A DNA stretch of 62,289 bases, taken from the IMG/VR virus record IMGVR_UViG_3300025654_000009, positions 1 to 62,289 of that record. One strand, 5' to 3'. Below the pieces are notes generated by a model. It worked only from the letters and a program-made list of their open reading frames with translations, ran no database searches and had not been told where the DNA came from. Of this stretch, positions 2,120-14,495 are shown piece after piece. The translations under genes were made by a program, and so were the position numbers. Source of the DNA: a virus. Its lineage: Duplodnaviria > Caudoviricetes. The first letter of the stretch is position 1, and each line of letters begins with the position of its first letter.

Positions 2120-3088
2120 ATGGGATTAATAACAGGGATAGCTGCAGGTGTAGCTGTAGGTGGCCAAGTAGCAAAAGGTTTTATAGCTTCAGATGGTTCA
2201 AAAGAAGCCGCTAGAATGGCAGGTCGTTTAAATATACAAAAAGAAGAATTAGAAAAGGAAGCAGTATCAAGACTTGAAACCAATTACTATGATGCTCTTA
2301 GAGCAACAACAGATGTATATGATAAACAACTTCAAACTGCAAATGCAATAACTGGACAGATAATCGAAAAGGCAGCCGAAGGTGACCAAAGAGGTTTAGT
2401 AGCAACAGCAGGTAAGGTAAAGCAAGGAGCAGATGCTACTACAGGATTAATTGCAGACAAGTATGCTGGACAACAATTAGGTATTGAGGCGAAAAGAGCG
2501 GAAGCTGCTGAAACAGATGCTGCTAGGATTGCAATGATGTTTGATGATAGAGCAGCGGCAGCAGGAGTAAAAGCTGATGCGTTAACACAACAATCAGATA
2601 ACTTATCAGGTCAGGCAACAGGGGCGTTTATTAACGCAGGGACAAGTGCATTATCTGCTGGACTTCAAGCTTTTGGAGGATTTGCTGGTATGAAAGATGC
2701 AACAGGTAAGGCAGTTAAATCTTTATTAGATAGTGGAGCAGCAAAAACTAATGCAGAGGCATTAAAAATAATTGATGGGTATGATAAAGGCCAATTAATG
2801 CAAACAGTTAAAACAGGTCTTCCTTTTGAGTTAGAATCTACAGCTTCAAATACTCCTGTAGTACCACAAGATGAAGATATTAGGATAGACGAAAAAAATA
2901 CACAAGTTGGTTATTCAGATTCTGTTGGAATGGATAAAAAAGTAGAAGCTGAAAGCGGATTCACTAATTTCTTTTCTGAATTAAAAACACAATTTGATAA
3001 TTTTACAAATCCTTTTGGTGATTTTAGTGAGATGTTTCAAGGACTAGGACTCTTTGGTTCTCCAAAACCGAAAGAAAAAGAACAATAA
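2120..3088 (+). CDS. Putative internal virion/ejection protein 1
   Basis: 322 aa, Ala/Gly/Gln-rich helical, hydrophobic Gly-rich N-terminus. Confidence 0.6.
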   Translation: MGLITGIAAGVAVGGQVAKGFIASDGSKEAARMAGRLNIQKEELEKEAVSRLETNYYDALRATTDVYDKQLQTANAITGQIIEKAAEGDQRGLVATAGKVKQGADATTGLIADKYAGQQLGIEAKRAEAAETDAARIAMMFDDRAAAAGVKADALTQQSDNLSGQATGAFINAGTSALSAGLQAFGGFAGMKDATGKAVKSLLDSGAAKTNAEALKIIDGYDKGQLMQTVKTGLPFELESTASNTPVVPQDEDIRIDEKNTQVGYSDSVGMDKKVEAESGFTNFFSELKTQFDNFTNPFGDFSEMFQGLGLFGSPKPKEKEQ

Positions 3089-5183: not shown

Positions 5184-8100
5184 ATGGAAGAAATTTACGA
5201 AATGTTACCTGAAGGAATATTTAATGATTTTAATGGTTTTTCTGAATACGTTAATCAAAATGGAATAAAAAGCGTATATGAGATGCTGCCTGAAGGTATT
5301 TTTAATGATGAGCAGGGGTTCTTAGATTATGCTGAAAAAAAAAACCCAATCGTTACTCCTTCAAATGGGGGAAAGGTTGTTACGGAATCTACTACAGAAA
5401 CGGAAACAACTCCTGGATCTTCGGATGGTTTAGAGGTAACCGAGGTAGTTGAAGATGACTTCGTTGACTTTAAGGAACAGATGAATCCTCTTAATGTTTT
5501 AAAAGGAGACACAGAAAATTTAATTCCAGAAGAAGAAGTTCAAGATTTCTTAACAGAAGATTTAAATAAATTACTAGATAATAGTGATATACCCTTAGAT
5601 GGATTTTACATGCCAGGTCAAAGTAGGGCTAGGGCTATGAAAAATGCAAGTAAAATAGTAGATGAAACATTAAAGTTAAAAATAGAGGCAGACCCAAACA
5701 TTCAAAAAGCATTAGCAGTTGGATATATAAAAGAATCAGACGTAATAAGTGCCTTAAAAGGTAATAGAAAATCTATAGAAAAACTTCAAGATATTGCGGT
5801 TAGGTCAACTGAAGACAACATATTAAAACTACAAAGTGAGGAGCTTCAGCCTTATGATGTTTATTCAGAAACAAAAAACTACATTGAAACAGAAGAAGAC
5901 AAGGCAATAAAAACAGAAGCCATAAGGGTAGTTAATTCCTTTAATTCAGAAACACAAAAACTTTTAGATGCAAATCCAGATGCTACTGAGGAGGAAATGC
6001 AGGCTATATTTCAAAGAGAAGGTTCTCCTACACAGGAACAGTTTGACATTGCAGAAGATGCAGATTACCAACCAACAGGTTTTGAAAATGAACAGCTTGG
6101 TAAAATGTATAATCAAACAGCTCTTAAAAAATTATCAGATAAAAACGAGAAATTTAATATAGCTGGTTTTAATGGCTACTTAAAGAAAAAAGGATTTCTA
6201 GATAAATACAATCAGTTATTAGAAGACGAAACCATCTCTGAAGATGGTAGAAGTTATGACTATTCAGGTAATTATAATCCAACCCTTGCAGCAGAAAGAC
6301 TTAAGTATGATTATTTAAAAAATTATCTTGCTGAATCTGACATGCAACGAATTGAAAAAGAAGTTTTAGAATATAAGATAGCTAATAATGGTAGGAATCC
6401 ATTTTTACATGGCGATACTGATAAAATTAATTTAAAACCTTCAATTAAAAGCGAAGACCTAAGTCAATATATGATTGAGGAATTTAAAACTCTTGCAGCT
6501 GTTGTAGAGAAACAAAAAGCCGAAACAAAAGAAAACTATCAAAGAGAACTAGAGGGAGGCGTAGGTGGAGATAATACTCAATGGCTTCTTGATTCAGGGT
6601 ATCAGGGTGGTCGTTCTGTAGCTGATAGAATAAATAGCACTTCCGAGTGGGGGTACGGATGGTTAGGTATGGATTCTGTTGTTGATGAAATTCAAATGAA
6701 TCAAGCTGAAACAGAACTCAACAGAGATGATATGCTTAGGTATACTTACGCAAGTGGTAAAAGTGCTTATGCTAATGGCAGAGAGTATATGATTGACGAT
6801 AGGGGAGAGATATATGATTTAGATTTAAAGATAAGAGTTAGTAGTGTTTTAGAGCCTAGTCAGATAGAAGAAATAAGAAAACAAGTATCAAAAAATGGAG
6901 TTGAAACAAGTAGTTTTAGTGGTACAGGAGCAGCAGTAACAACTGCAGGTGTAGCCTCTGATATGTTACTTCAGATAGCTCTTACTAGAGGTGTTGGAAT
7001 AGCAGGACAAACCATTAAAGGTATATCGGCAGCCTCTAAATACAAGCAAGGAAGGTCTATAATAAAATTATTAGAAAAAGTACCTATGAGAGCTACAACA
7101 GCATCAGCTATGATTGCTCAAGGAACTTTAATGGCTAGTTCGTTATCTTCAGATGTAAGAAAGCAAGCTTTAGCTGCAGGAATGTCAAATGAAGAGGCAG
7201 ATGAATTAGCAGCAAGTGCAAGTATGCAGGGTTATGCTTTAGGTGTTTTAACAGCTCCTATATCTACTCAAAGAATTGCTATGGATAAAATTTTCGGAAC
7301 AAAAGTAAAAGAAAAGCTTATTCAAAAAAGCATAGATGCATATACTAAAGGAGCAGGTATTGAGGTATCTAAAAGTATTTTTAAAAAAGGTTTAGATAAG
7401 GTAATAACAAATGGAAAAGTATACCTTGGAGAAGGTCTTAAAGAGTTTATTCAAGAAAATATTCAACAAGGAGGACAGGCTTATGTTATTGGTGACAACA
7501 TAAATGAGCAAGCAGGTCAAGAAATAATGCGAGATACCATTAGTGCAGATGAGTTTATGAACACATCCATAATCTCACTAACAGCAGGTTTTTTTATGCC
7601 TTTTGCAGGAGATTTAAAAACAGGTACTGTTAATTCTTTTAAAGTTAGAGGTAGGGGTTTTCAGGCTGTCGATCAAATGAAAGCATTGGCTTTAATGTCT
7701 AGTGATTCAGATAAAACAAAACAACTTTTAGACTCACAAGTTAAAAAAGGAGTATATACACCAGAGCAGGTAGAAAATATAATGGCTGATGTAGAGATAT
7801 ACAAAAGCACAATAAATGGATTACCTCCTAATTTAAGTGCAGAAACCTCTTTGTCGGTTATGAGTGACTTAGCTAAAATAAAAGAACTTGAAGCTATAAA
7901 GCAAAAAGAAAACCCTGCTTTTCCAGATTTTAGAACTGATGTAGAGATACAGAAATTAAAAAATAGAATAATCAAGAAATCTAACTTTGACTTTATTAAT
8001 AATAAAGAGAAGCAAAAATTCATGGATAATGCAGGTAAAGAGTTAGTTGCAGAGAAAGAAGCTGCAGGTGAAAAAAACTACAAAATAAATAATAGCGAAA

Positions 8101-11100
8101 TTAGAAATAGAGCTGTAGAGAACTTTAACAAGTTGTCAATAGAAGAAATGCAGGCTTTAGCTTATCCAGACCAACAAAAAGAATCAGAAACTAAAACAGA
8201 CGAAGATGCCATTTCAAAGCCAAGCACAGAGGAGCAAGTTACTGTGACACAATCACAAAAGGATTTATTTGGAGAAACTCATACAGATAAAAATTTAATA
8301 ACCCCATCTAATCCTAAAGGAGAAGCAAATATATCAAATATTACAAGCCTTGATGGAAAAGGGGTATCAACAGCAACTTATGTAAATCCAGAAACAGGTA
8401 TTGTAGATGCTATCATAAGTAGTAAAGACAAGAAAAACTTTGTTGGATATGTTAGGATTTATGAAAACGGTAAGCCAACAAATATGTTCTCTACTAAGAT
8501 GGAGTCTACAGGAGGTGCGTTTAAGAATATGATTACATCTGCTGATACTACGCTACCTGATGGAGCTAAAGTTCTTCCAGGGGAAACAATATCTGAAGGA
8601 GGTCTTAAGTCTTTTAATAATTCTAAATTAGATGTAGAGACTGACTCAGATGGTAATGTTGTTACAAGAGAAGTAAATTATAGCGATGTAACAAAAGAGA
8701 CTGTAAAGCAAAAAGGAGATAGATCTTTTGGTAAATTTGTAACTCCTATTAAGTCGGAAGCAGAAGCAGAGATTGTTAAAATACAAAAAGCATATCCTGG
8801 GATAGAAGCAAGAATAGTAAAAAGTGGTTTGTCTTTTGAGATAAAAATAGACTTACCTGTATTAATTAAAACAGAAAAAGATGCCATTCAAGAGCCAAGC
8901 ACAGAGAAGCAAGTGTTACCAGATGATGCAACAAGCCAAACAGATGGGGCAGACTCCGAAGTGGAACTGCAGCAAGTGGGAGAAGGAGACGTTGGGACAG
9001 ATACCGACACGCAAGTCGAAGAAGGTGAAACGCAAACCGATACAACTAGCGACACGACTACGGAGGGAAATGTTGAACAAGTAGCAGAAACGCAACTTAA
9101 GCCTTATGACCCTGTAAAAAAAGAATCTTATGAAACAGTTGACGACAATGGTGATAAAGCTATTGTTGTGATTATAACTGCAAAAGACGGTAGTAGAAAA
9201 ATACAATATAAAAACAAAGACGGAGAAACATACAACAATGATACTCTTGGAAAAGATAACGATATAACTAATGAAAGAGTTATTGAGCTTGTTGTCTCTG
9301 AAGAGGGCAGCGGTATTGTTAAAACGGAAACAATAGAAGGATTTGAGAACATAGCAAGTCCAAAAGCAGTAAGAAGAAGAAAAGGAAACAAAACGACAGA
9401 TACTGAACAGTTAACAGATACCCCACAAGTATTTGGGGACAATCCTCTTTCTTCTATAGAGGTGTCAGAAGATTACAATGACATAGGTAAACAGAGAAGA
9501 AGTAAACTTAGGGTTATCGCTCAAATGGAGTTTAATAATGAAATAACTGCTGAGGAACAATTAAATCTTAGAGAGGACTCTTTTAGGAACATGAAAAAAG
9601 CACAAGAAGCTTTTAAATCTAAACCAAAAACTAATGAAAAAACAAAACAACAAGTACAATCCAAACGCTCCAGAGACGGAGGAACAAGACGGACTTCAAT
9701 CAGCAAAACTACGCCTCTTCAAGGCACTCCAGTCATCAAAGGTGCAACAGGACCAGATATACAGCTCGTATCCGTTGCTGAAAAATATGCAAATGACAAC
9801 AATATTGAACTCAAAAGACAAGGAGAATACGTTGAAGTAGATCCTGTTAGAGCTAAAAGAATAGCTGATGCTTACACAGAAATGGCTAACGATCCTCAAA
9901 ATCCAAAAGTAAAGGAGGCCTATGCTGAATTAATAAAACAAACTAAAGCTCAATATGAAGCTTTAGTTAAAGCAGGTTATAAATTTTGGTTTATTGACTT
10001 AAACAATCCTAAAAATATTGAATACATTTCGTCTCCATTTAATGCAATGCGTGATTTGCGTAAAAATAAAGAAATGGGAGTTTTCCCAACAGATTTAGGT
10101 TTTGGTTCAGATGAAGATGTTGATGTTTCTCAAAATCCTTTACTAGAAGACACAGGTCTAAAATGGCCAGTTGGAGGATTGAATGGAGAAACCAAGTCCG
10201 TTACAGCTAATGATTTATTTAGAGCTGTTCATGATGCTTTTGGCCATGGATTAGAAGGGGCAGGGTTTAGAGCAAGAGGAGAGGAGAATGCTTGGCAAGC
10301 TCATTCTAGATTATTTACAGGAGCTGCTATTGGTGCAATGACAAGTGAAACAAGAGGACAAAACTCTTGGGTAAATTTTGGCCCTAATGGGGAATCAAAT
10401 AGAACTGCAAGTGCAGAGGATACGGTTTTTGCAGATCAAAAAGTAGGATTAATGCCTGAGTGGACTTGGTCTGAAGGTCGTTCAGAAGATATGCAGTCTC
10501 CAAAAGTGATGAGTGTGAACAATGACCTCGACAATAAGATTGAGTCATTTGCAAATAGAATGGCTGATGCTGATACTTCTAACGAATTATCTGATGAAGC
10601 TATAGAATTTTATTCAGAGAATCAAGAAGCTATAGATAAAAGAGTTTCTGAAATACGAAAAAAATTACCTAAAGATAAATCAAAAACAAGAAGACTAGCT
10701 ACTAAGATAGCAAAAGGAGAGACTAACTTTTCAAATGAGCAGATAGATTTATATGCTGCTAATGAAGCAGAAGTACAGGCTGAGGTAGAAGCCATTGCTA
10801 AAACCAATAGTCAAACTGTAACGGCTGATACTTATAAAGGTATTTTAAAATCTATAAAGAGTACAACTAGAACCGACAAAGCAAGACAAGAAGGAGAGAA
10901 TGCTCAACGTAAAAGATTTTGGAAAGCTTGGAACAAGGCCAACAGAGAAGGTAAACAAGATTTAAAAACTAAAAGAAAAAATCTTAATGATCAGATAAAG
11001 ACATATGCTAAGGGTAAAAAAGGAACTATTACCGCAGCTCAAACAAGAGCAGTTGTAAATAGAGTTAATAGTGTAAACCTTGACAATGAATTAGCTGTAC

Positions 11101-14100
11101 AAGAATTAATAGATTACTCTGAGAAAATTTTTAATAATGCAGACTTTGCTGTTAAAGAAGCACAGGCTATTAAACTTAATTCAGATGTAACAAAGAAACT
11201 TAATTCTGGAGCTTATGGTTTAAATACAGACTTGAATACAAGATTGTCAAATATTTTAAATACACCTATTAGTAACCTTACATCTGAAAATATAGATTCT
11301 TATAATGATTTTCTAAAAAGAATTAAGAACTCTAAAAAATCAGAATTAGCTCCATTTATATTAGAGGCTCAAAACTTATTTGACTCTTTGTATGTAGCAA
11401 CTCCAGAGGTTAGTGAAGAGGTAGAAACTAAAGAAGCTGAGACATTAAAAAATATAGTTGATAAAATAATTGATGAAGACGTAGATGGCGAAACATTACT
11501 TAAAGATAACAGTAAATTTATTGAAAATGATTTAGGTAAGTTAGATTCATTTGAGTTAGAAACTCTTATAGATAAGATTAATTTAGCTGAAACAGATGAA
11601 AATACTGATATAGTTCAGGCCGCTAATAACTATGCAGAGAACAGACAAAAGGTTTTAAACAACATAAAGTCAAGGTCTAAAGGAATTACTTTAAAAAACC
11701 TAGACACTACTACAAGAGAGGCAGGTGATGTTAATGTCTATAAAAACATAAAAGATTCTGATATAGTTGGGCTAACAGGTAATCAACTAATGGAATTAGA
11801 GATTACTCTTGAGAACATAAACGAAGGGTTTTATACTCATGCTGCAAACAAGCTTGGCCAATCTATAAACAGTAGGGCGCAAGATATTATGCCTATGATT
11901 ATGAAGTACGGAACTGGGAAACATAAAGCAGCTATGATTAAAACCTTTGGAGAATCCTATTTAAAAAGTAAGTATACAGGTAAAGGAGTAGCTCAGGAGA
12001 TGATAAGATCAAACCCATTGTCTGTTATTGATAATGTGTTTGGTAACTATGCAAATGAAAATATAAGGAACAATACATTTACACCTATAGCATCTAAATA
12101 CGCTGCATATAATGCTTGGGCAGCTAAGGCTACAGATAAACTTGCTGCTGTAGAAAAACTTTTAGCACCATCTTTAAAGGAAAGTGTAAATAAATCTGTT
12201 GAAAGAAATTTTGAAGTACAGATGTATCTATTGGCATTAGAGAGTGAAAGCAATCCAGGAGTAAAGGGTATTGATACTCCCAATGGATATGTGTCTGCTG
12301 TAGTAAAAAAATATAATAAAAACCCTCAAAAAAGCAGATACAATGAATCAGATATAGCAGTTTTAGAAGCTATGTTAAAAAAGTACAATGATAATGGTGT
12401 AGTTACAACTAAAAAAATGGATGAGTCTTTATCTCCTAAAGTAAAGAAGGCGATAAAGATAATGCGTGATGTTTATAATTCATTGTCAGACAAACAGGCT
12501 TATGCTACAACTATTGTTCGAGGAGGTAAATTAGATTTATTAAATAACTATGTACATCACAAAATGGATGTAGATACTAAGGGATTTTCTGAAAACAGAG
12601 ACCAAAATGATTCTCAATTGCAGAGTCAAATGAATTACTTTAACTCTAGTACAAAGTCAAAAACATCAATAAGCAGAACAGGAGTAAGTAATAATAAGTC
12701 TATTGACTTTAGTCCTGTTTCATCAGCACTTAGAGCAGTAAGGGCGGTGGGTATGGATTATTATCTAACAAATGAAATTCAAACAGAAAGAAAAGCGTTA
12801 AATGAATTAATTAAAATAACAGAAAGAAATACAGATAGAGAAGAAGTTATTCAGGCTGCTAAAGATTTAAATGAAGTATACACAGAAGCTATAGATAACG
12901 TTATTGGTTCTAACTTTAGCACCGATGTTGTTGGTGGTAAGCTTATGGATGTAGCAAAAAGAATAGGTTATTACGGAACACTAGCTTCTGTTCCTAGAGC
13001 AGTAGCTGAACTTGGTTCTAACTTAACTTTTGCACTTTTGGATAGTCCCCTTGAAACAATGGATGGGATGACTAAGTACGGTAAACTAGGGCTTGGGCAA
13101 AACGGAATGGATTTTGCTATAAATGTTGGAGCTATTTCTTACACTAAATTATATAATTCTGAAATATTATCAGGCTCTAAAGCAGAACAAGGAGGTGTTG
13201 TTAGAAATAAAAAGACAAGCAGCAGAACTAAACAAACTAAGTTAGGTGAGGGAATTGAGTATGCTGGTAGGTTTACTTCTCAAGGGGCTAAAGGAATTGA
13301 GTTTGTAGCAGATAACTTATTAAGTACTCCTGATAAAATGATTTCAAGACCTTTATTTTTTGGAACATTCGGTAGAACCTTTAAGTCTATAACAGGTCAA
13401 GAAATGGATGTAAATAAGATTTCAGAAAATGACCAAGAGTATATGGAAAAATATGCTGATGCTATTAAAGAATCTAGGATTGCTGCTGATAAAGCAGTAA
13501 CTCAAGCAGCAACTTCTAATGACCCATTTAGTGGTGTGTTAAAGAATCAATTAAAAGCAGGAGCAGGAAATACTGGTAAGAATTATTACAGAACACTTAA
13601 TTCATACATGGCTAGATTTACTATTAATGAATACGCTACAGCCAGACAAGCAATTGCATCTATGGTCGGTCAAGGGGATCAAAGCCCAATACAAGGAGCT
13701 GCAAAATTAACAGCTGTAATGGCTCGAATGAGTCTTTACGTTGTCTCTTATAAAGCTTTAACTGCTTTATGGCAATCAATGCTAGGTCTTGATGATGAAG
13801 ATGATGTTGATTACGAAGAGCTAGCTATAAGACAAGCGGTTGGTGCAGGAGTTTCATTAATAACAAGAGGTGTAACAGGGAACATTCCTCAGATTCTGCC
13901 AAACATAGGTATTGAAAGTTTTAATAAATCTTATGGAGAAGAGTTGGGCTTATGGTCAGATGATGATGGAAAAGGATATAATCAATACAAACATTCATTA
14001 ATTTTTTCTATTATTAACACAGAAAGTATAGAAAGAAAAGGAGCAGCATCAGCGTTAATAAATGTTTTGTCAGGGCCTTTATCAAATCAAGTAAATGCAA

Positions 14101-14495
14101 GTCTAAGGGTTGCAGATTTATTAGCAAAGATGGATAGTAAAAATGCTACCGTAGCTAATAGAGCCTTTAAAGAATTTATGTCTGAAAGGACAGCTATAGA
14201 GATGCTTAATATTCCTGGTGCAATTCCTTTTTATAAAGACGTTAGAAGATATTATGTTGCTAAAAATTGGTCTGAAGTAAAGGAGGCAAAAAGACTGGAA
14301 GAAAACAAAGGTAAGCGATTGAGTATTAAACAAATGGAACTAATTAATCCTAGGAAAGCTGATGAAATGAGACGAAAGAAAAAAGAGCTTAAAGAAAAAA
14401 GGAATAATGACCCAAAATATCAAGCAATTTTAAGAGCCAAAAAAGAACGTAAAGAAAAAAGAGAAAGGGAATTAAGAAGAAGAAGAAGAAGATAG
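5184..14495 (+). CDS. Giant (3103 aa) putative ejected/polyvalent virion protein
   Basis: Last gene of the structural arm; N-terminal YEMLPEGIFND x2; acidic linkers; central RAVHDAFGH...GEENAW domain; basic C-terminus. Confidence 0.75.
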   Translation: MEEIYEMLPEGIFNDFNGFSEYVNQNGIKSVYEMLPEGIFNDEQGFLDYAEKKNPIVTPSNGGKVVTESTTETETTPGSSDGLEVTEVVEDDFVDFKEQMNPLNVLKGDTENLIPEEEVQDFLTEDLNKLLDNSDIPLDGFYMPGQSRARAMKNASKIVDETLKLKIEADPNIQKALAVGYIKESDVISALKGNRKSIEKLQDIAVRSTEDNILKLQSEELQPYDVYSETKNYIETEEDKAIKTEAIRVVNSFNSETQKLLDANPDATEEEMQAIFQREGSPTQEQFDIAEDADYQPTGFENEQLGKMYNQTALKKLSDKNEKFNIAGFNGYLKKKGFLDKYNQLLEDETISEDGRSYDYSGNYNPTLAAERLKYDYLKNYLAESDMQRIEKEVLEYKIANNGRNPFLHGDTDKINLKPSIKSEDLSQYMIEEFKTLAAVVEKQKAETKENYQRELEGGVGGDNTQWLLDSGYQGGRSVADRINSTSEWGYGWLGMDSVVDEIQMNQAETELNRDDMLRYTYASGKSAYANGREYMIDDRGEIYDLDLKIRVSSVLEPSQIEEIRKQVSKNGVETSSFSGTGAAVTTAGVASDMLLQIALTRGVGIAGQTIKGISAASKYKQGRSIIKLLEKVPMRATTASAMIAQGTLMASSLSSDVRKQALAAGMSNEEADELAASASMQGYALGVLTAPISTQRIAMDKIFGTKVKEKLIQKSIDAYTKGAGIEVSKSIFKKGLDKVITNGKVYLGEGLKEFIQENIQQGGQAYVIGDNINEQAGQEIMRDTISADEFMNTSIISLTAGFFMPFAGDLKTGTVNSFKVRGRGFQAVDQMKALALMSSDSDKTKQLLDSQVKKGVYTPEQVENIMADVEIYKSTINGLPPNLSAETSLSVMSDLAKIKELEAIKQKENPAFPDFRTDVEIQKLKNRIIKKSNFDFINNKEKQKFMDNAGKELVAEKEAAGEKNYKINNSEIRNRAVENFNKLSIEEMQALAYPDQQKESETKTDEDAISKPSTEEQVTVTQSQKDLFGETHTDKNLITPSNPKGEANISNITSLDGKGVSTATYVNPETGIVDAIISSKDKKNFVGYVRIYENGKPTNMFSTKMESTGGAFKNMITSADTTLPDGAKVLPGETISEGGLKSFNNSKLDVETDSDGNVVTREVNYSDVTKETVKQKGDRSFGKFVTPIKSEAEAEIVKIQKAYPGIEARIVKSGLSFEIKIDLPVLIKTEKDAIQEPSTEKQVLPDDATSQTDGADSEVELQQVGEGDVGTDTDTQVEEGETQTDTTSDTTTEGNVEQVAETQLKPYDPVKKESYETVDDNGDKAIVVIITAKDGSRKIQYKNKDGETYNNDTLGKDNDITNERVIELVVSEEGSGIVKTETIEGFENIASPKAVRRRKGNKTTDTEQLTDTPQVFGDNPLSSIEVSEDYNDIGKQRRSKLRVIAQMEFNNEITAEEQLNLREDSFRNMKKAQEAFKSKPKTNEKTKQQVQSKRSRDGGTRRTSISKTTPLQGTPVIKGATGPDIQLVSVAEKYANDNNIELKRQGEYVEVDPVRAKRIADAYTEMANDPQNPKVKEAYAELIKQTKAQYEALVKAGYKFWFIDLNNPKNIEYISSPFNAMRDLRKNKEMGVFPTDLGFGSDEDVDVSQNPLLEDTGLKWPVGGLNGETKSVTANDLFRAVHDAFGHGLEGAGFRARGEENAWQAHSRLFTGAAIGAMTSETRGQNSWVNFGPNGESNRTASAEDTVFADQKVGLMPEWTWSEGRSEDMQSPKVMSVNNDLDNKIESFANRMADADTSNELSDEAIEFYSENQEAIDKRVSEIRKKLPKDKSKTRRLATKIAKGETNFSNEQIDLYAANEAEVQAEVEAIAKTNSQTVTADTYKGILKSIKSTTRTDKARQEGENAQRKRFWKAWNKANREGKQDLKTKRKNLNDQIKTYAKGKKGTITAAQTRAVVNRVNSVNLDNELAVQELIDYSEKIFNNADFAVKEAQAIKLNSDVTKKLNSGAYGLNTDLNTRLSNILNTPISNLTSENIDSYNDFLKRIKNSKKSELAPFILEAQNLFDSLYVATPEVSEEVETKEAETLKNIVDKIIDEDVDGETLLKDNSKFIENDLGKLDSFELETLIDKINLAETDENTDIVQAANNYAENRQKVLNNIKSRSKGITLKNLDTTTREAGDVNVYKNIKDSDIVGLTGNQLMELEITLENINEGFYTHAANKLGQSINSRAQDIMPMIMKYGTGKHKAAMIKTFGESYLKSKYTGKGVAQEMIRSNPLSVIDNVFGNYANENIRNNTFTPIASKYAAYNAWAAKATDKLAAVEKLLAPSLKESVNKSVERNFEVQMYLLALESESNPGVKGIDTPNGYVSAVVKKYNKNPQKSRYNESDIAVLEAMLKKYNDNGVVTTKKMDESLSPKVKKAIKIMRDVYNSLSDKQAYATTIVRGGKLDLLNNYVHHKMDVDTKGFSENRDQNDSQLQSQMNYFNSSTKSKTSISRTGVSNNKSIDFSPVSSALRAVRAVGMDYYLTNEIQTERKALNELIKITERNTDREEVIQAAKDLNEVYTEAIDNVIGSNFSTDVVGGKLMDVAKRIGYYGTLASVPRAVAELGSNLTFALLDSPLETMDGMTKYGKLGLGQNGMDFAINVGAISYTKLYNSEILSGSKAEQGGVVRNKKTSSRTKQTKLGEGIEYAGRFTSQGAKGIEFVADNLLSTPDKMISRPLFFGTFGRTFKSITGQEMDVNKISENDQEYMEKYADAIKESRIAADKAVTQAATSNDPFSGVLKNQLKAGAGNTGKNYYRTLNSYMARFTINEYATARQAIASMVGQGDQSPIQGAAKLTAVMARMSLYVVSYKALTALWQSMLGLDDEDDVDYEELAIRQAVGAGVSLITRGVTGNIPQILPNIGIESFNKSYGEELGLWSDDDGKGYNQYKHSLIFSIINTESIERKGAASALINVLSGPLSNQVNASLRVADLLAKMDSKNATVANRAFKEFMSERTAIEMLNIPGAIPFYKDVRRYYVAKNWSEVKEAKRLEENKGKRLSIKQMELINPRKADEMRRKKKELKEKRNNDPKYQAILRAKKERKEKRERELRRRRRR
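8192..8914 (+). repeat. 48-bp imperfect direct repeat (8192-8239 and 8867-8914) flanking an in-frame module
   Basis: 42/48 identical by hand; spacing 675 nt = 225 codons. Confidence 0.85.
8881..9084 (+). CDS. Overprinted (+1 frame) small basic protein MPFKSQAQR...
   Basis: 67 aa; GC ~51% over 8881-9060 vs ~25% in the preceding 60 nt; A-rich leader; resembles small phage proteins starting MPFKS. Confidence 0.65.
   Translation: MPFKSQAQRSKCYQMMQQAKQMGQTPKWNCSKWEKETLGQIPTRKSKKVKRKPIQLATRLRREMLNK
9634..9840 (+). CDS. Candidate second overprinted (+1 frame) protein in the giant gene
   Basis: 68 aa; A-rich leader; GC ~51% over 9661-9780. Confidence 0.4.
   Translation: MKKQNNKYNPNAPETEEQDGLQSAKLRLFKALQSSKVQQDQIYSSYPLLKNMQMTTILNSKDKENTLK

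Follow-up and report, generated by a model that had tools for sequence, protein, structure and literature searches.

We propose that the viral record IMGVR_UViG_3300025654_000009, analysed here over its whole length (the window; a complete viral record of 62,289 bp, CheckV 100%, with a G+C content (GC) of 33.3%), carries a small protein-coding gene at positions 8881..9084 (+ strand) that is embedded in the +1 frame of a giant virion gene (5184..14495, + strand), and we give this reading a probability of about 0.85. It is carried by a family of homologous proteins, recognised with a model built from other sequences, and by a pattern of substitutions that follows the small frame in two families of host genes. 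A preliminary description of this stretch had proposed a real nested gene giving one basic and one acidic product from the same DNA, and both the family model and the selection tests described below argue for that proposal.

The nested gene comprises 67 codons followed by TAG. Its predicted product starts at an ATG with MPFKSQAQRSKCY and is a small basic protein with an isoelectric point (pI) of 10.91 and 18 Lys and Arg residues against 3 Asp and Glu. It shows an MPFKSQAQR N-terminus, two predicted helices, a WEKET motif, a P42 motif, and a K/R-rich tail with a C-terminal helix. The host is the 3103-codon open reading frame (ORF) 5184-14495, encoding a protein of 3103 amino acids of the virion module, which is read one base upstream of the nested frame. 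Across the overlap (8880..9086, + strand), the host frame encodes an acidic linker rich in Asp, Glu, Thr, and Gln (DAIQEPSTEKQV...QQVGEGD; pI 4.05), with 20 Asp and Glu residues against one Lys or Arg. The GC rises from 0.250 at 8821-8880 to 0.506 at 8881-9060, the share of T is 12.3% in 8881-9084 versus 31.6% across the window, and the leader before the nested ATG (...acagaaaaagATG) has A at -3 and -2. Recomputation confirmed everything that the preliminary description had reported in this respect, i.e., the 67-codon +1 ORF, the GC jump from ~25% to ~51%, the A at -3, and the acidic host linker. Taken alone, the ORF is not beyond chance. All six frames are open in the T-poor patch in which it lies, +1 open runs of 81 codons (9595-9837) and 64 codons occur elsewhere in the giant gene, and among 5000 resamplings of the host peptide with synonymous codons, 4.5% had a +1 frame open over 67 codons with an ATG, which corresponds to a p of about 0.045. 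It is the comparison with related sequences that goes beyond chance expectation.

Homologues of the nested peptide were detected in several sequence collections. In a set of 50,697 phage records, tblastn with the nested peptide matched 68 records of Elemovirus (Flavobacterium phages; E=7e-3), and the match lies in the +1 frame of a giant coding sequence (CDS) annotated as 'structural protein', where it forms an unannotated 42-codon ORF beginning MPFKSKAQ. In the same records, neither blastn with positions 7900-10100 nor tblastn with two stand-alone members of the family gave a match. Scanning IMG/VR with the nested peptide yielded 70 loci, the N-terminus of which is conserved by ascertainment, as one of the search patterns was MPFKSQAQ. 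The ORF is embedded in a long ORF, with codons beginning one base upstream, in 60 of these 70 loci, while in the other 10 the family gene is free-standing and the would-be host frame contains 2-8 stops. A profile made from an alignment of 27 peptides (A1) and searched against 1.84 billion cluster representatives matched 2156 of them at E<=1e-3 and 113 at E<=1e-10, with most matches beginning at residue 1. Stand-alone MPFKS homologues, which the preliminary description had expected, were thus found both among the IMG/VR loci and by the profile search. Many family members are predicted proteins of 47-100 amino acids starting at residue 1; others have 100-677 amino acids with the domain at the N-terminus, and in 4 of 10 tested the Pfam domain DUF5661 follows further along.

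The profile A1 matches the nested ORF with E=1.8e-25. In order to avoid circularity, a second, independent hidden Markov model (HMM) was built from 147 of the best 150 A1 matches, all of them gene-caller proteins, with no window or locus sequence included. Searched against 801 six-frame segments of the window, this model recognised the segment 8866-9081 with E=3.9e-17 (57.8 bits, model positions 1-50), the runner-up having an E-value of 0.46, and the nested ORF is the sole full copy of the family in this genome. The family architecture consists of MPFKSxAQR, a helix, a loop, W-x-x-ET, LPxR, and a K/R tail. All of the invariant or near-invariant columns (M1, P2, F3, K4, S5, Q8, W33, T37, and P42) are present in the nested peptide, which has I41 where the family has L41. 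The window copy resembles the rest of the family in matching across the whole domain, in the conserved columns, and in the basic tail. It differs from other members, together with its close kin, in having two Cys residues (C12 and C30), a longer loop, and a 25-residue extension with a third helix, and in being embedded, whereas most members are free-standing or head longer proteins. These results show that the nested peptide belongs to a large family without a name, which comprises both small basic phage proteins and N-terminal domains.

The family carries no functional label in the resources searched. Source names of its members are 'hypothetical protein' only, and the ESM Atlas returned hypothetical viral clusters only. 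The nested peptide matched no Pfam family at E<=1, and Pfam and PHROG searches with 8 other members and with the 80 members of a second alignment (A2) gave no family for this domain either. Among the PHROG families, the best match of the nested peptide had an E-value of 0.042, and at E<=0.01 the 80 members matched three families, each by one member, so that no family recurs. Choline_sulf_C, matched weakly by 14 of the 80 members (best E 3.7e-4), was treated as a motif-level chance similarity. The ESM Atlas pointed to Pfam DUF3008 (PF11450; 0.84), a small viral protein of similar length, but 0 of the 80 members match its model at E<=1. The idea that the nested ORF represents the N-terminal domain of a long member that continues in the host frame was likewise rejected, as BLASTP of 78 long members gave 0 matches to any host protein. 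Among the long members, four proteins of 472-677 amino acids (P0018, P0026, P0042, and P0065) combine an N-terminal MPFKS domain with DUF5661; in P0026, P0042, and P0065 a Gly/Ala/Gln-rich tail is accompanied by a hydrophobic stretch close to the C-terminus, and the tail of P0018 is rich in Gln. Such proteins resemble a possible class of internal virion proteins.

The pattern of substitutions reveals which of the two frames is preserved. In a first set of 17 unique sequences (the window, L072, L002, and L006-L025, minus four loci with short flanks and three duplicates), the diversity at host codon positions 1/2/3 is 0.255/0.164/0.110 in the overlap and about 0.49/0.44/0.55 in both flanks. The overlap is therefore an island of conservation between saturated flanks. 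Variable columns number 51/70, 34/69, and 26/69 at host positions 1, 2, and 3, respectively (p=1.3e-4), i.e., the variation peaks at the third position of the +1 frame. The pooled Nei-Gojobori ratio of nonsynonymous to synonymous differences (pN/pS) is 0.30 for the +1 frame, 1.43 for the host frame, and 1.15 for the +2 frame. When single-base variants were classed against the consensus and compared by Fisher's test, changes that are silent in the +1 frame and alter the host protein were observed at 53/103 possible sites, compared to 18/125 for those that are silent in the host frame and alter the +1 peptide (odds ratio 6.3, p=1.9e-9); the latter are no commoner than changes altering both proteins (64/316).

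A second set of 14 unique sequences, in which the nested gene lies in a different host gene (~390 amino acids) between a portal gene and a virion structural gene, gave the same picture, with a pN/pS of 0.33 in the +1 frame and 0.86 in the host frame, and variant classes of 38/49 versus 19/66 (p=2.4e-7). Directly downstream of the overlap in this same gene the variant classes are reversed (145/386 versus 292/396, p=1e-24), with a pN/pS of 0.40 for the host frame and 1.01 for the +1 frame. As a control we used a +1 ORF of 68 codons in a second GC-rich patch of the giant gene (9634-9840), the frame of which is open over 40-78 codons in many of 41 homologous spans. Here selection is seen on the host frame only (pN/pS 0.64 in the host frame and 1.04 in the +1 frame), and host position 3 varies most. 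This ORF therefore looks like a by-product of composition, as its substitutions follow the host frame only. Altogether, these comparisons show that purifying selection over the overlap acts on the +1 frame. The preliminary description had suggested that synonymous variation be examined for suppression, and the variation turned out to be phased on the +1 frame in two host families.

The composition of the overlap can be understood from the constraint that one frame imposes on the other. The host frame is open in 62/62 nested loci; when the nested peptide was resampled with the codon usage of the giant gene, it was open in 0/5000 trials. It follows directly from the genetic code that a T at a nested third position followed by AA, AG, or GA is a stop in the host frame, and a peptide rich in Lys, Arg, and Glu offers many such sites. 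Accordingly, T makes up 0.03 of the nested third positions in the window and 0.06 across all unique nested genes. Its share is 0.38 over the remainder of the giant gene, and stand-alone members of the family have 0.20. G makes up 0.52 in the window and 0.49 in all unique nested genes, compared to 0.12 in the rest of the giant gene and 0.29 in stand-alone members. T is thus avoided, and G is mostly used, at nested third positions because the giant frame must stay open, and this purging of T produces the local GC jump. Through the same third-position constraint, a peptide rich in Lys, Arg, and Gln is read as a linker rich in Asp, Glu, and Thr in the host frame. These figures bear out the earlier proposal that the nested gene shapes both the linker and the local GC. 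The host frame over the overlap appears to be selected for openness, its residues being nearly unconstrained and drifting. G is enriched at host first positions in the overlap, and since G in place of A turns would-be Lys and Arg host codons into Glu, Gly, or Asp, its preference suggests some selection for an acidic linker.

The region around the nested ATG resembles the gene starts of this phage. The leader (8841..8880, + strand) lies within the host coding sequence and is A-rich, G-poor, unstructured, and without a Shine-Dalgarno motif; such motifs are missing from the gene starts of this phage in general. Across 44 unique nested loci, the 13 bases 5' of the ATG are A-rich and nearly free of G, with A at a frequency of at least 0.73 at positions -13 to -11, -8, -6, -5, -3, and -2. 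When scored with a position weight matrix (PWM; leave-one-out), the leader of the window lies within the range of the 36 gene starts of this phage, at their 28th percentile. The minimum free energy (MFE) predicted for -30..+30 at the nested ATG is -2.5 kcal/mol, indicating weak structure, compared to -3.6 +/- 2.9 kcal/mol for real starts and -7.8 +/- 3.1 kcal/mol for internal ATGs. The closest cultured relatives of this phage have Flavobacteriia as hosts, and PMC6847099 describes initiation in Bacteroidetes as independent of Shine-Dalgarno motifs and dependent on weak structure and upstream adenines, including the A at -3. The start signals of the nested ATG fit independent initiation, with which they are compatible; they are no proof of it.

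The distribution of the nested gene was assessed in 80 loci that were collected independently of the +1 peptide, by means of two patterns from an upstream domain of the giant protein. The HMM detected a +1 nested ORF with an ATG in 26 of these loci, including one truncated at 32 amino acids (L119) and one that runs off the locus (L132). Divergent variants of 36-39 amino acids were detected by motif in 5 loci, the nested gene is split by a module in one (L135), two loci hold 5'-deleted remnants (L121 and L122), and none was detected within 7 kilobases in the remaining 46, four of which have too little downstream DNA and one of which has an N at the start. Altogether, 31 of the 80 loci carry the nested gene and 4 have broken copies. 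These counts show the nested gene to be widespread but patchy, and at times lost. The proposed check on conservation of the ATG and the open +1 frame at DAIQE motifs in homologous giant genes came out in favour of the preliminary description: both are kept at DAIQ or DAVQ in 62/62 nested loci and in Elemovirus, with the qualification that not every homologous giant gene carries a copy. The giant hosts fall into one mosaic group of 36 loci connected by BLASTP, the genes of the second set forming a second group (17 loci) and four loci a third, and the nested frame is +1 relative to the host in every case. More than 25 viral contigs encode peptides 66-82% identical to the nested peptide. As had been predicted, gene callers miss such ORFs: a word-based search of 5.8 billion predicted proteins gave no candidate, and in the GenBank record of Elemovirus the giant CDS alone is annotated over the nested ORF. 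In the searchable literature on MPFKS, DUF5661, and Elemovirus, the nested gene was not found, and a match of MPFKS in one phage paper was a C-terminal coincidence. Two of the loci (L068 and L069, positions 2940-3000 of each) are ~95% identical over the aligned host stretch, and their giant ORFs are broken at different places; in L068 a 2-nucleotide difference just 5' of the nested ATG splits the host gene, which could reflect either a genuine frameshift or a mistake in the assembly.

Further upstream in the same giant gene (8206..8247, + strand), the 5' end of the nested gene occurs a second time, in truncated form. This copy encodes MPFQSQAQRSKLL over 13 codons before a stop, is read as DAISKPSTEEQV in the host frame, and lies exactly 675 nucleotides upstream of the full copy. 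The two copies bound a host module of 675 nucleotides (225 amino acids; 8206..8880, + strand) with a direct repeat of ~37 nucleotides that corresponds to the 5' end of the nested gene. The 675-nucleotide spacing recurs in L008/9/13/15, the module is missing at that position in L022, L023, and L016, and in L135 a similar module divides the nested gene. At 8873-8928, metagenomic contigs with unlike flanks share only the first 35-50 nucleotides of the nested gene (two marine DNA runs and one RNA-library run). This word reaches a local summed depth of about 400 in one run and is common to many phages of those communities.

These observations can be weighed against other explanations of the ORF. 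A chance ORF, left open by a T-poor acidic linker in which the host codons GAT-GCN (Asp-Ala) happen to make an ATG, would be in line with the six open frames, the +1 runs of 81 and 64 codons elsewhere in the giant gene, and the probability of 0.045 for an open frame with an ATG given the host peptide, and the control ORF shows that a +1 frame can be open in many homologues without selection on it. We nevertheless regard chance as extremely improbable, considering that a family model built independently of the window recognises the peptide, that stand-alone homologues exist, and that in both host families the substitutions follow the +1 frame. The T-poor composition itself follows from the nested gene, given that stand-alone members show 0.20 T at third positions and 2-8 stops in the corresponding frame. 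Entry into the +1 frame by frameshifting from the giant frame, resulting in a truncated giant protein with a basic tail, is conceivable in that both frames lie on one mRNA and a +1 shift near 8880 would reach the open frame. The position of the start makes this very improbable as well: a stop in the +1 frame lies 1-25 codons upstream in 70/70 loci, and Elemovirus and L072, which were detected without an M-containing pattern, both have ATG as the first codon. The same codon starts the ORF in 26/28 host-ascertained loci matched by the HMM, the other two being the 5'-deleted remnants, and free-standing members of the family begin at Met-Pro-Phe.

The nested ORF could also be a silent relic, i.e., a free-standing gene swallowed by the giant gene and no longer translated, the DNA of which is kept for another reason, e.g., as a homology patch between mosaic giant genes. 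The conservation island between saturated flanks, the recurrence of the first ~37 nucleotides as a direct repeat bounding the 675-nucleotide module, the presence of the same word in contigs with unlike flanks, and the broken copies in L119, L121/122, and L135 would all agree with such a relic. Constraint at the DNA level would, however, produce neither the periodicity at +1 third positions nor a +1 pN/pS of 0.30-0.33, and in 62/62 nested loci the peptides, although diverged down to 40-60% identity, retain their ATG, an uninterrupted frame, and the motifs of the family. We thus consider a relic improbable, and a translated gene embedded in the giant gene to be the better reading of these data.

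Several points weigh against the embedded gene. Its support comes from sequence comparison, and RNA-library contigs cannot show transcription or translation. Contigs from two RNA libraries of one sample do span 8705-9144; we base no claim on them because they show neither transcription, starts, nor strand. The gene is not universal, as seen from the 46/80 host-ascertained loci lacking a detected copy within 7 kilobases, and it occurs in 1/39 loci that share only a downstream domain of the giant protein. By its start-context PWM score, the nested ATG ranks no higher than the top 12.4% among 890 out-of-frame internal ATGs. For the pN/pS values, pairwise counts were pooled without tree correction, and an overlap itself distorts such ratios. 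In addition, most nested loci in the selection tests were ascertained via the +1 peptide and thus carry an ascertainment bias; their E-values are far from the cut-off, and host-based searches gave no contrary class. Finally, neither the family nor the fold searches point to a function of the peptide.

Based on the evidence for the embedded gene, we suggest that the small gene is the older frame and that the giant ORF later came to read across it, because the free-standing form is broadly distributed, the nested form is confined, and the host reading is disordered and unconstrained. Translation of the peptide would start independently of the giant frame, from its own ATG on the late mRNA, probably using the A-rich, unstructured start context without a Shine-Dalgarno motif that is typical of Bacteroidota. 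A more far-reaching and, as a whole, unlikely scenario would join these steps with the module structure. The giant virion genes of marine Flavobacteriia phages would have grown by reading across a resident, still-translated small gene, so that the basic peptide (pI 10.9) and the acidic linker (pI 4.05) form a co-evolving pair in which the peptide might, for example, dock on or neutralise the giant protein during packaging. In this scenario the ultra-conserved first ~37 nucleotides of the nested gene would act as a homology joint at which the giant gene exchanges domain modules of 225 residues.

The giant protein matches phrog_32588 at residues 2271-3069 and also phrog_3170, and it matches no Pfam family. 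Its homologue in Elemovirus carries the 'structural protein' label mentioned above, and its relatives have no other label. A neighbouring ORF (920-1684; 255 amino acids) contains the C-terminal domain of the crAss-virus muzzle protein (PF25729, E=8.8e-15, above the curated cut-off), which at least assigns the giant gene to the part of the genome with tail and cargo genes and points to tail parts common to this Flavobacteriia-type phage and crAss-like viruses. Free-standing copies of the family adjoin portal or virion-structural genes, and in L070 the free-standing gene directly follows a homologue of the C-terminus of the giant gene (27% identity over 864 residues, E=3e-72). At positions 2940-3000 of this locus, a tandem duplication of 24 nucleotides lies at the very end of the giant-gene homologue, directly before the free-standing MPFKS gene. 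The AlphaFold2 model of the nested peptide has a mean predicted local distance difference test score (pLDDT) of 83, with three helices (6-22, 30-36, and 55-66) and a basic stretch in extended conformation. A fold search with this model gave 0 PDB matches at E<=10, and against BFVD it matched uncharacterised viral proteins only (best E 0.012). Because the gene is syntenic with portal and virion-structural genes and the tail of its product is strongly basic, we tentatively propose a role in virion assembly or as a basic, nucleic-acid-binding protein carried in the virion; we see this as a possible assignment, somewhat short of a probable one.

Small genes that are fully contained within a larger one, share its strand, are read in the +1 frame from a start of their own, and often go unannotated are familiar from the Rz/Rz1-type pairs of dsDNA phages. 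The nested gene resembles these in being on the same strand, in the +1 frame, and overlooked by routine annotation. It differs in its host, a virion gene encoding 3103 amino acids instead of a lysis gene, and in having thousands of free-standing relatives, hence being probably the older frame; furthermore, no functional coupling of the nested and giant products is known. Genes B, K, and E of phiX174 are overprinted genes of a small virus, and classically the short internal ORF is the novel one. Overprinting in viruses has been reviewed (PMC3494269 and PMC8227390). The nested pair, with the inner ORF entirely inside the outer and both frames open in all of the 62 nested loci, shares with overprinted genes the two readings of one DNA, of which one is more constrained and the other compositionally biased and probably disordered. 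Unlike in classical overprinting, it is the large host gene whose reading is disordered and weakly constrained, with the small ORF as the member of a conserved family. By its sequence features, the nested gene is best seen as a further case of the known class of same-strand embedded genes.

Overall, the embedded gene would represent a clean and well-supported example, discarded by annotation pipelines, of dual coding in a large dsDNA phage; the nested ORFs of its kin occur neither among the 5.8 billion catalogued protein predictions nor in the GenBank records of the cultured Elemovirus. It also uncovers a family of proteins that has over 2000 cluster representatives and is without a Pfam or PHROG model. 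The GC and T-depletion anomaly is explained by stop avoidance in the second frame, and searches for further hidden genes could make use of this signature. The same arrangement in a cultured phage-host pair (Elemovirus/Flavobacterium sp. BAL314) would make host-silent knock-outs of the nested gene feasible. The polarity of the pair appears unusual, in that the conserved small gene seems to be the older partner and the linker of the giant gene seems to be its overprinted by-product.

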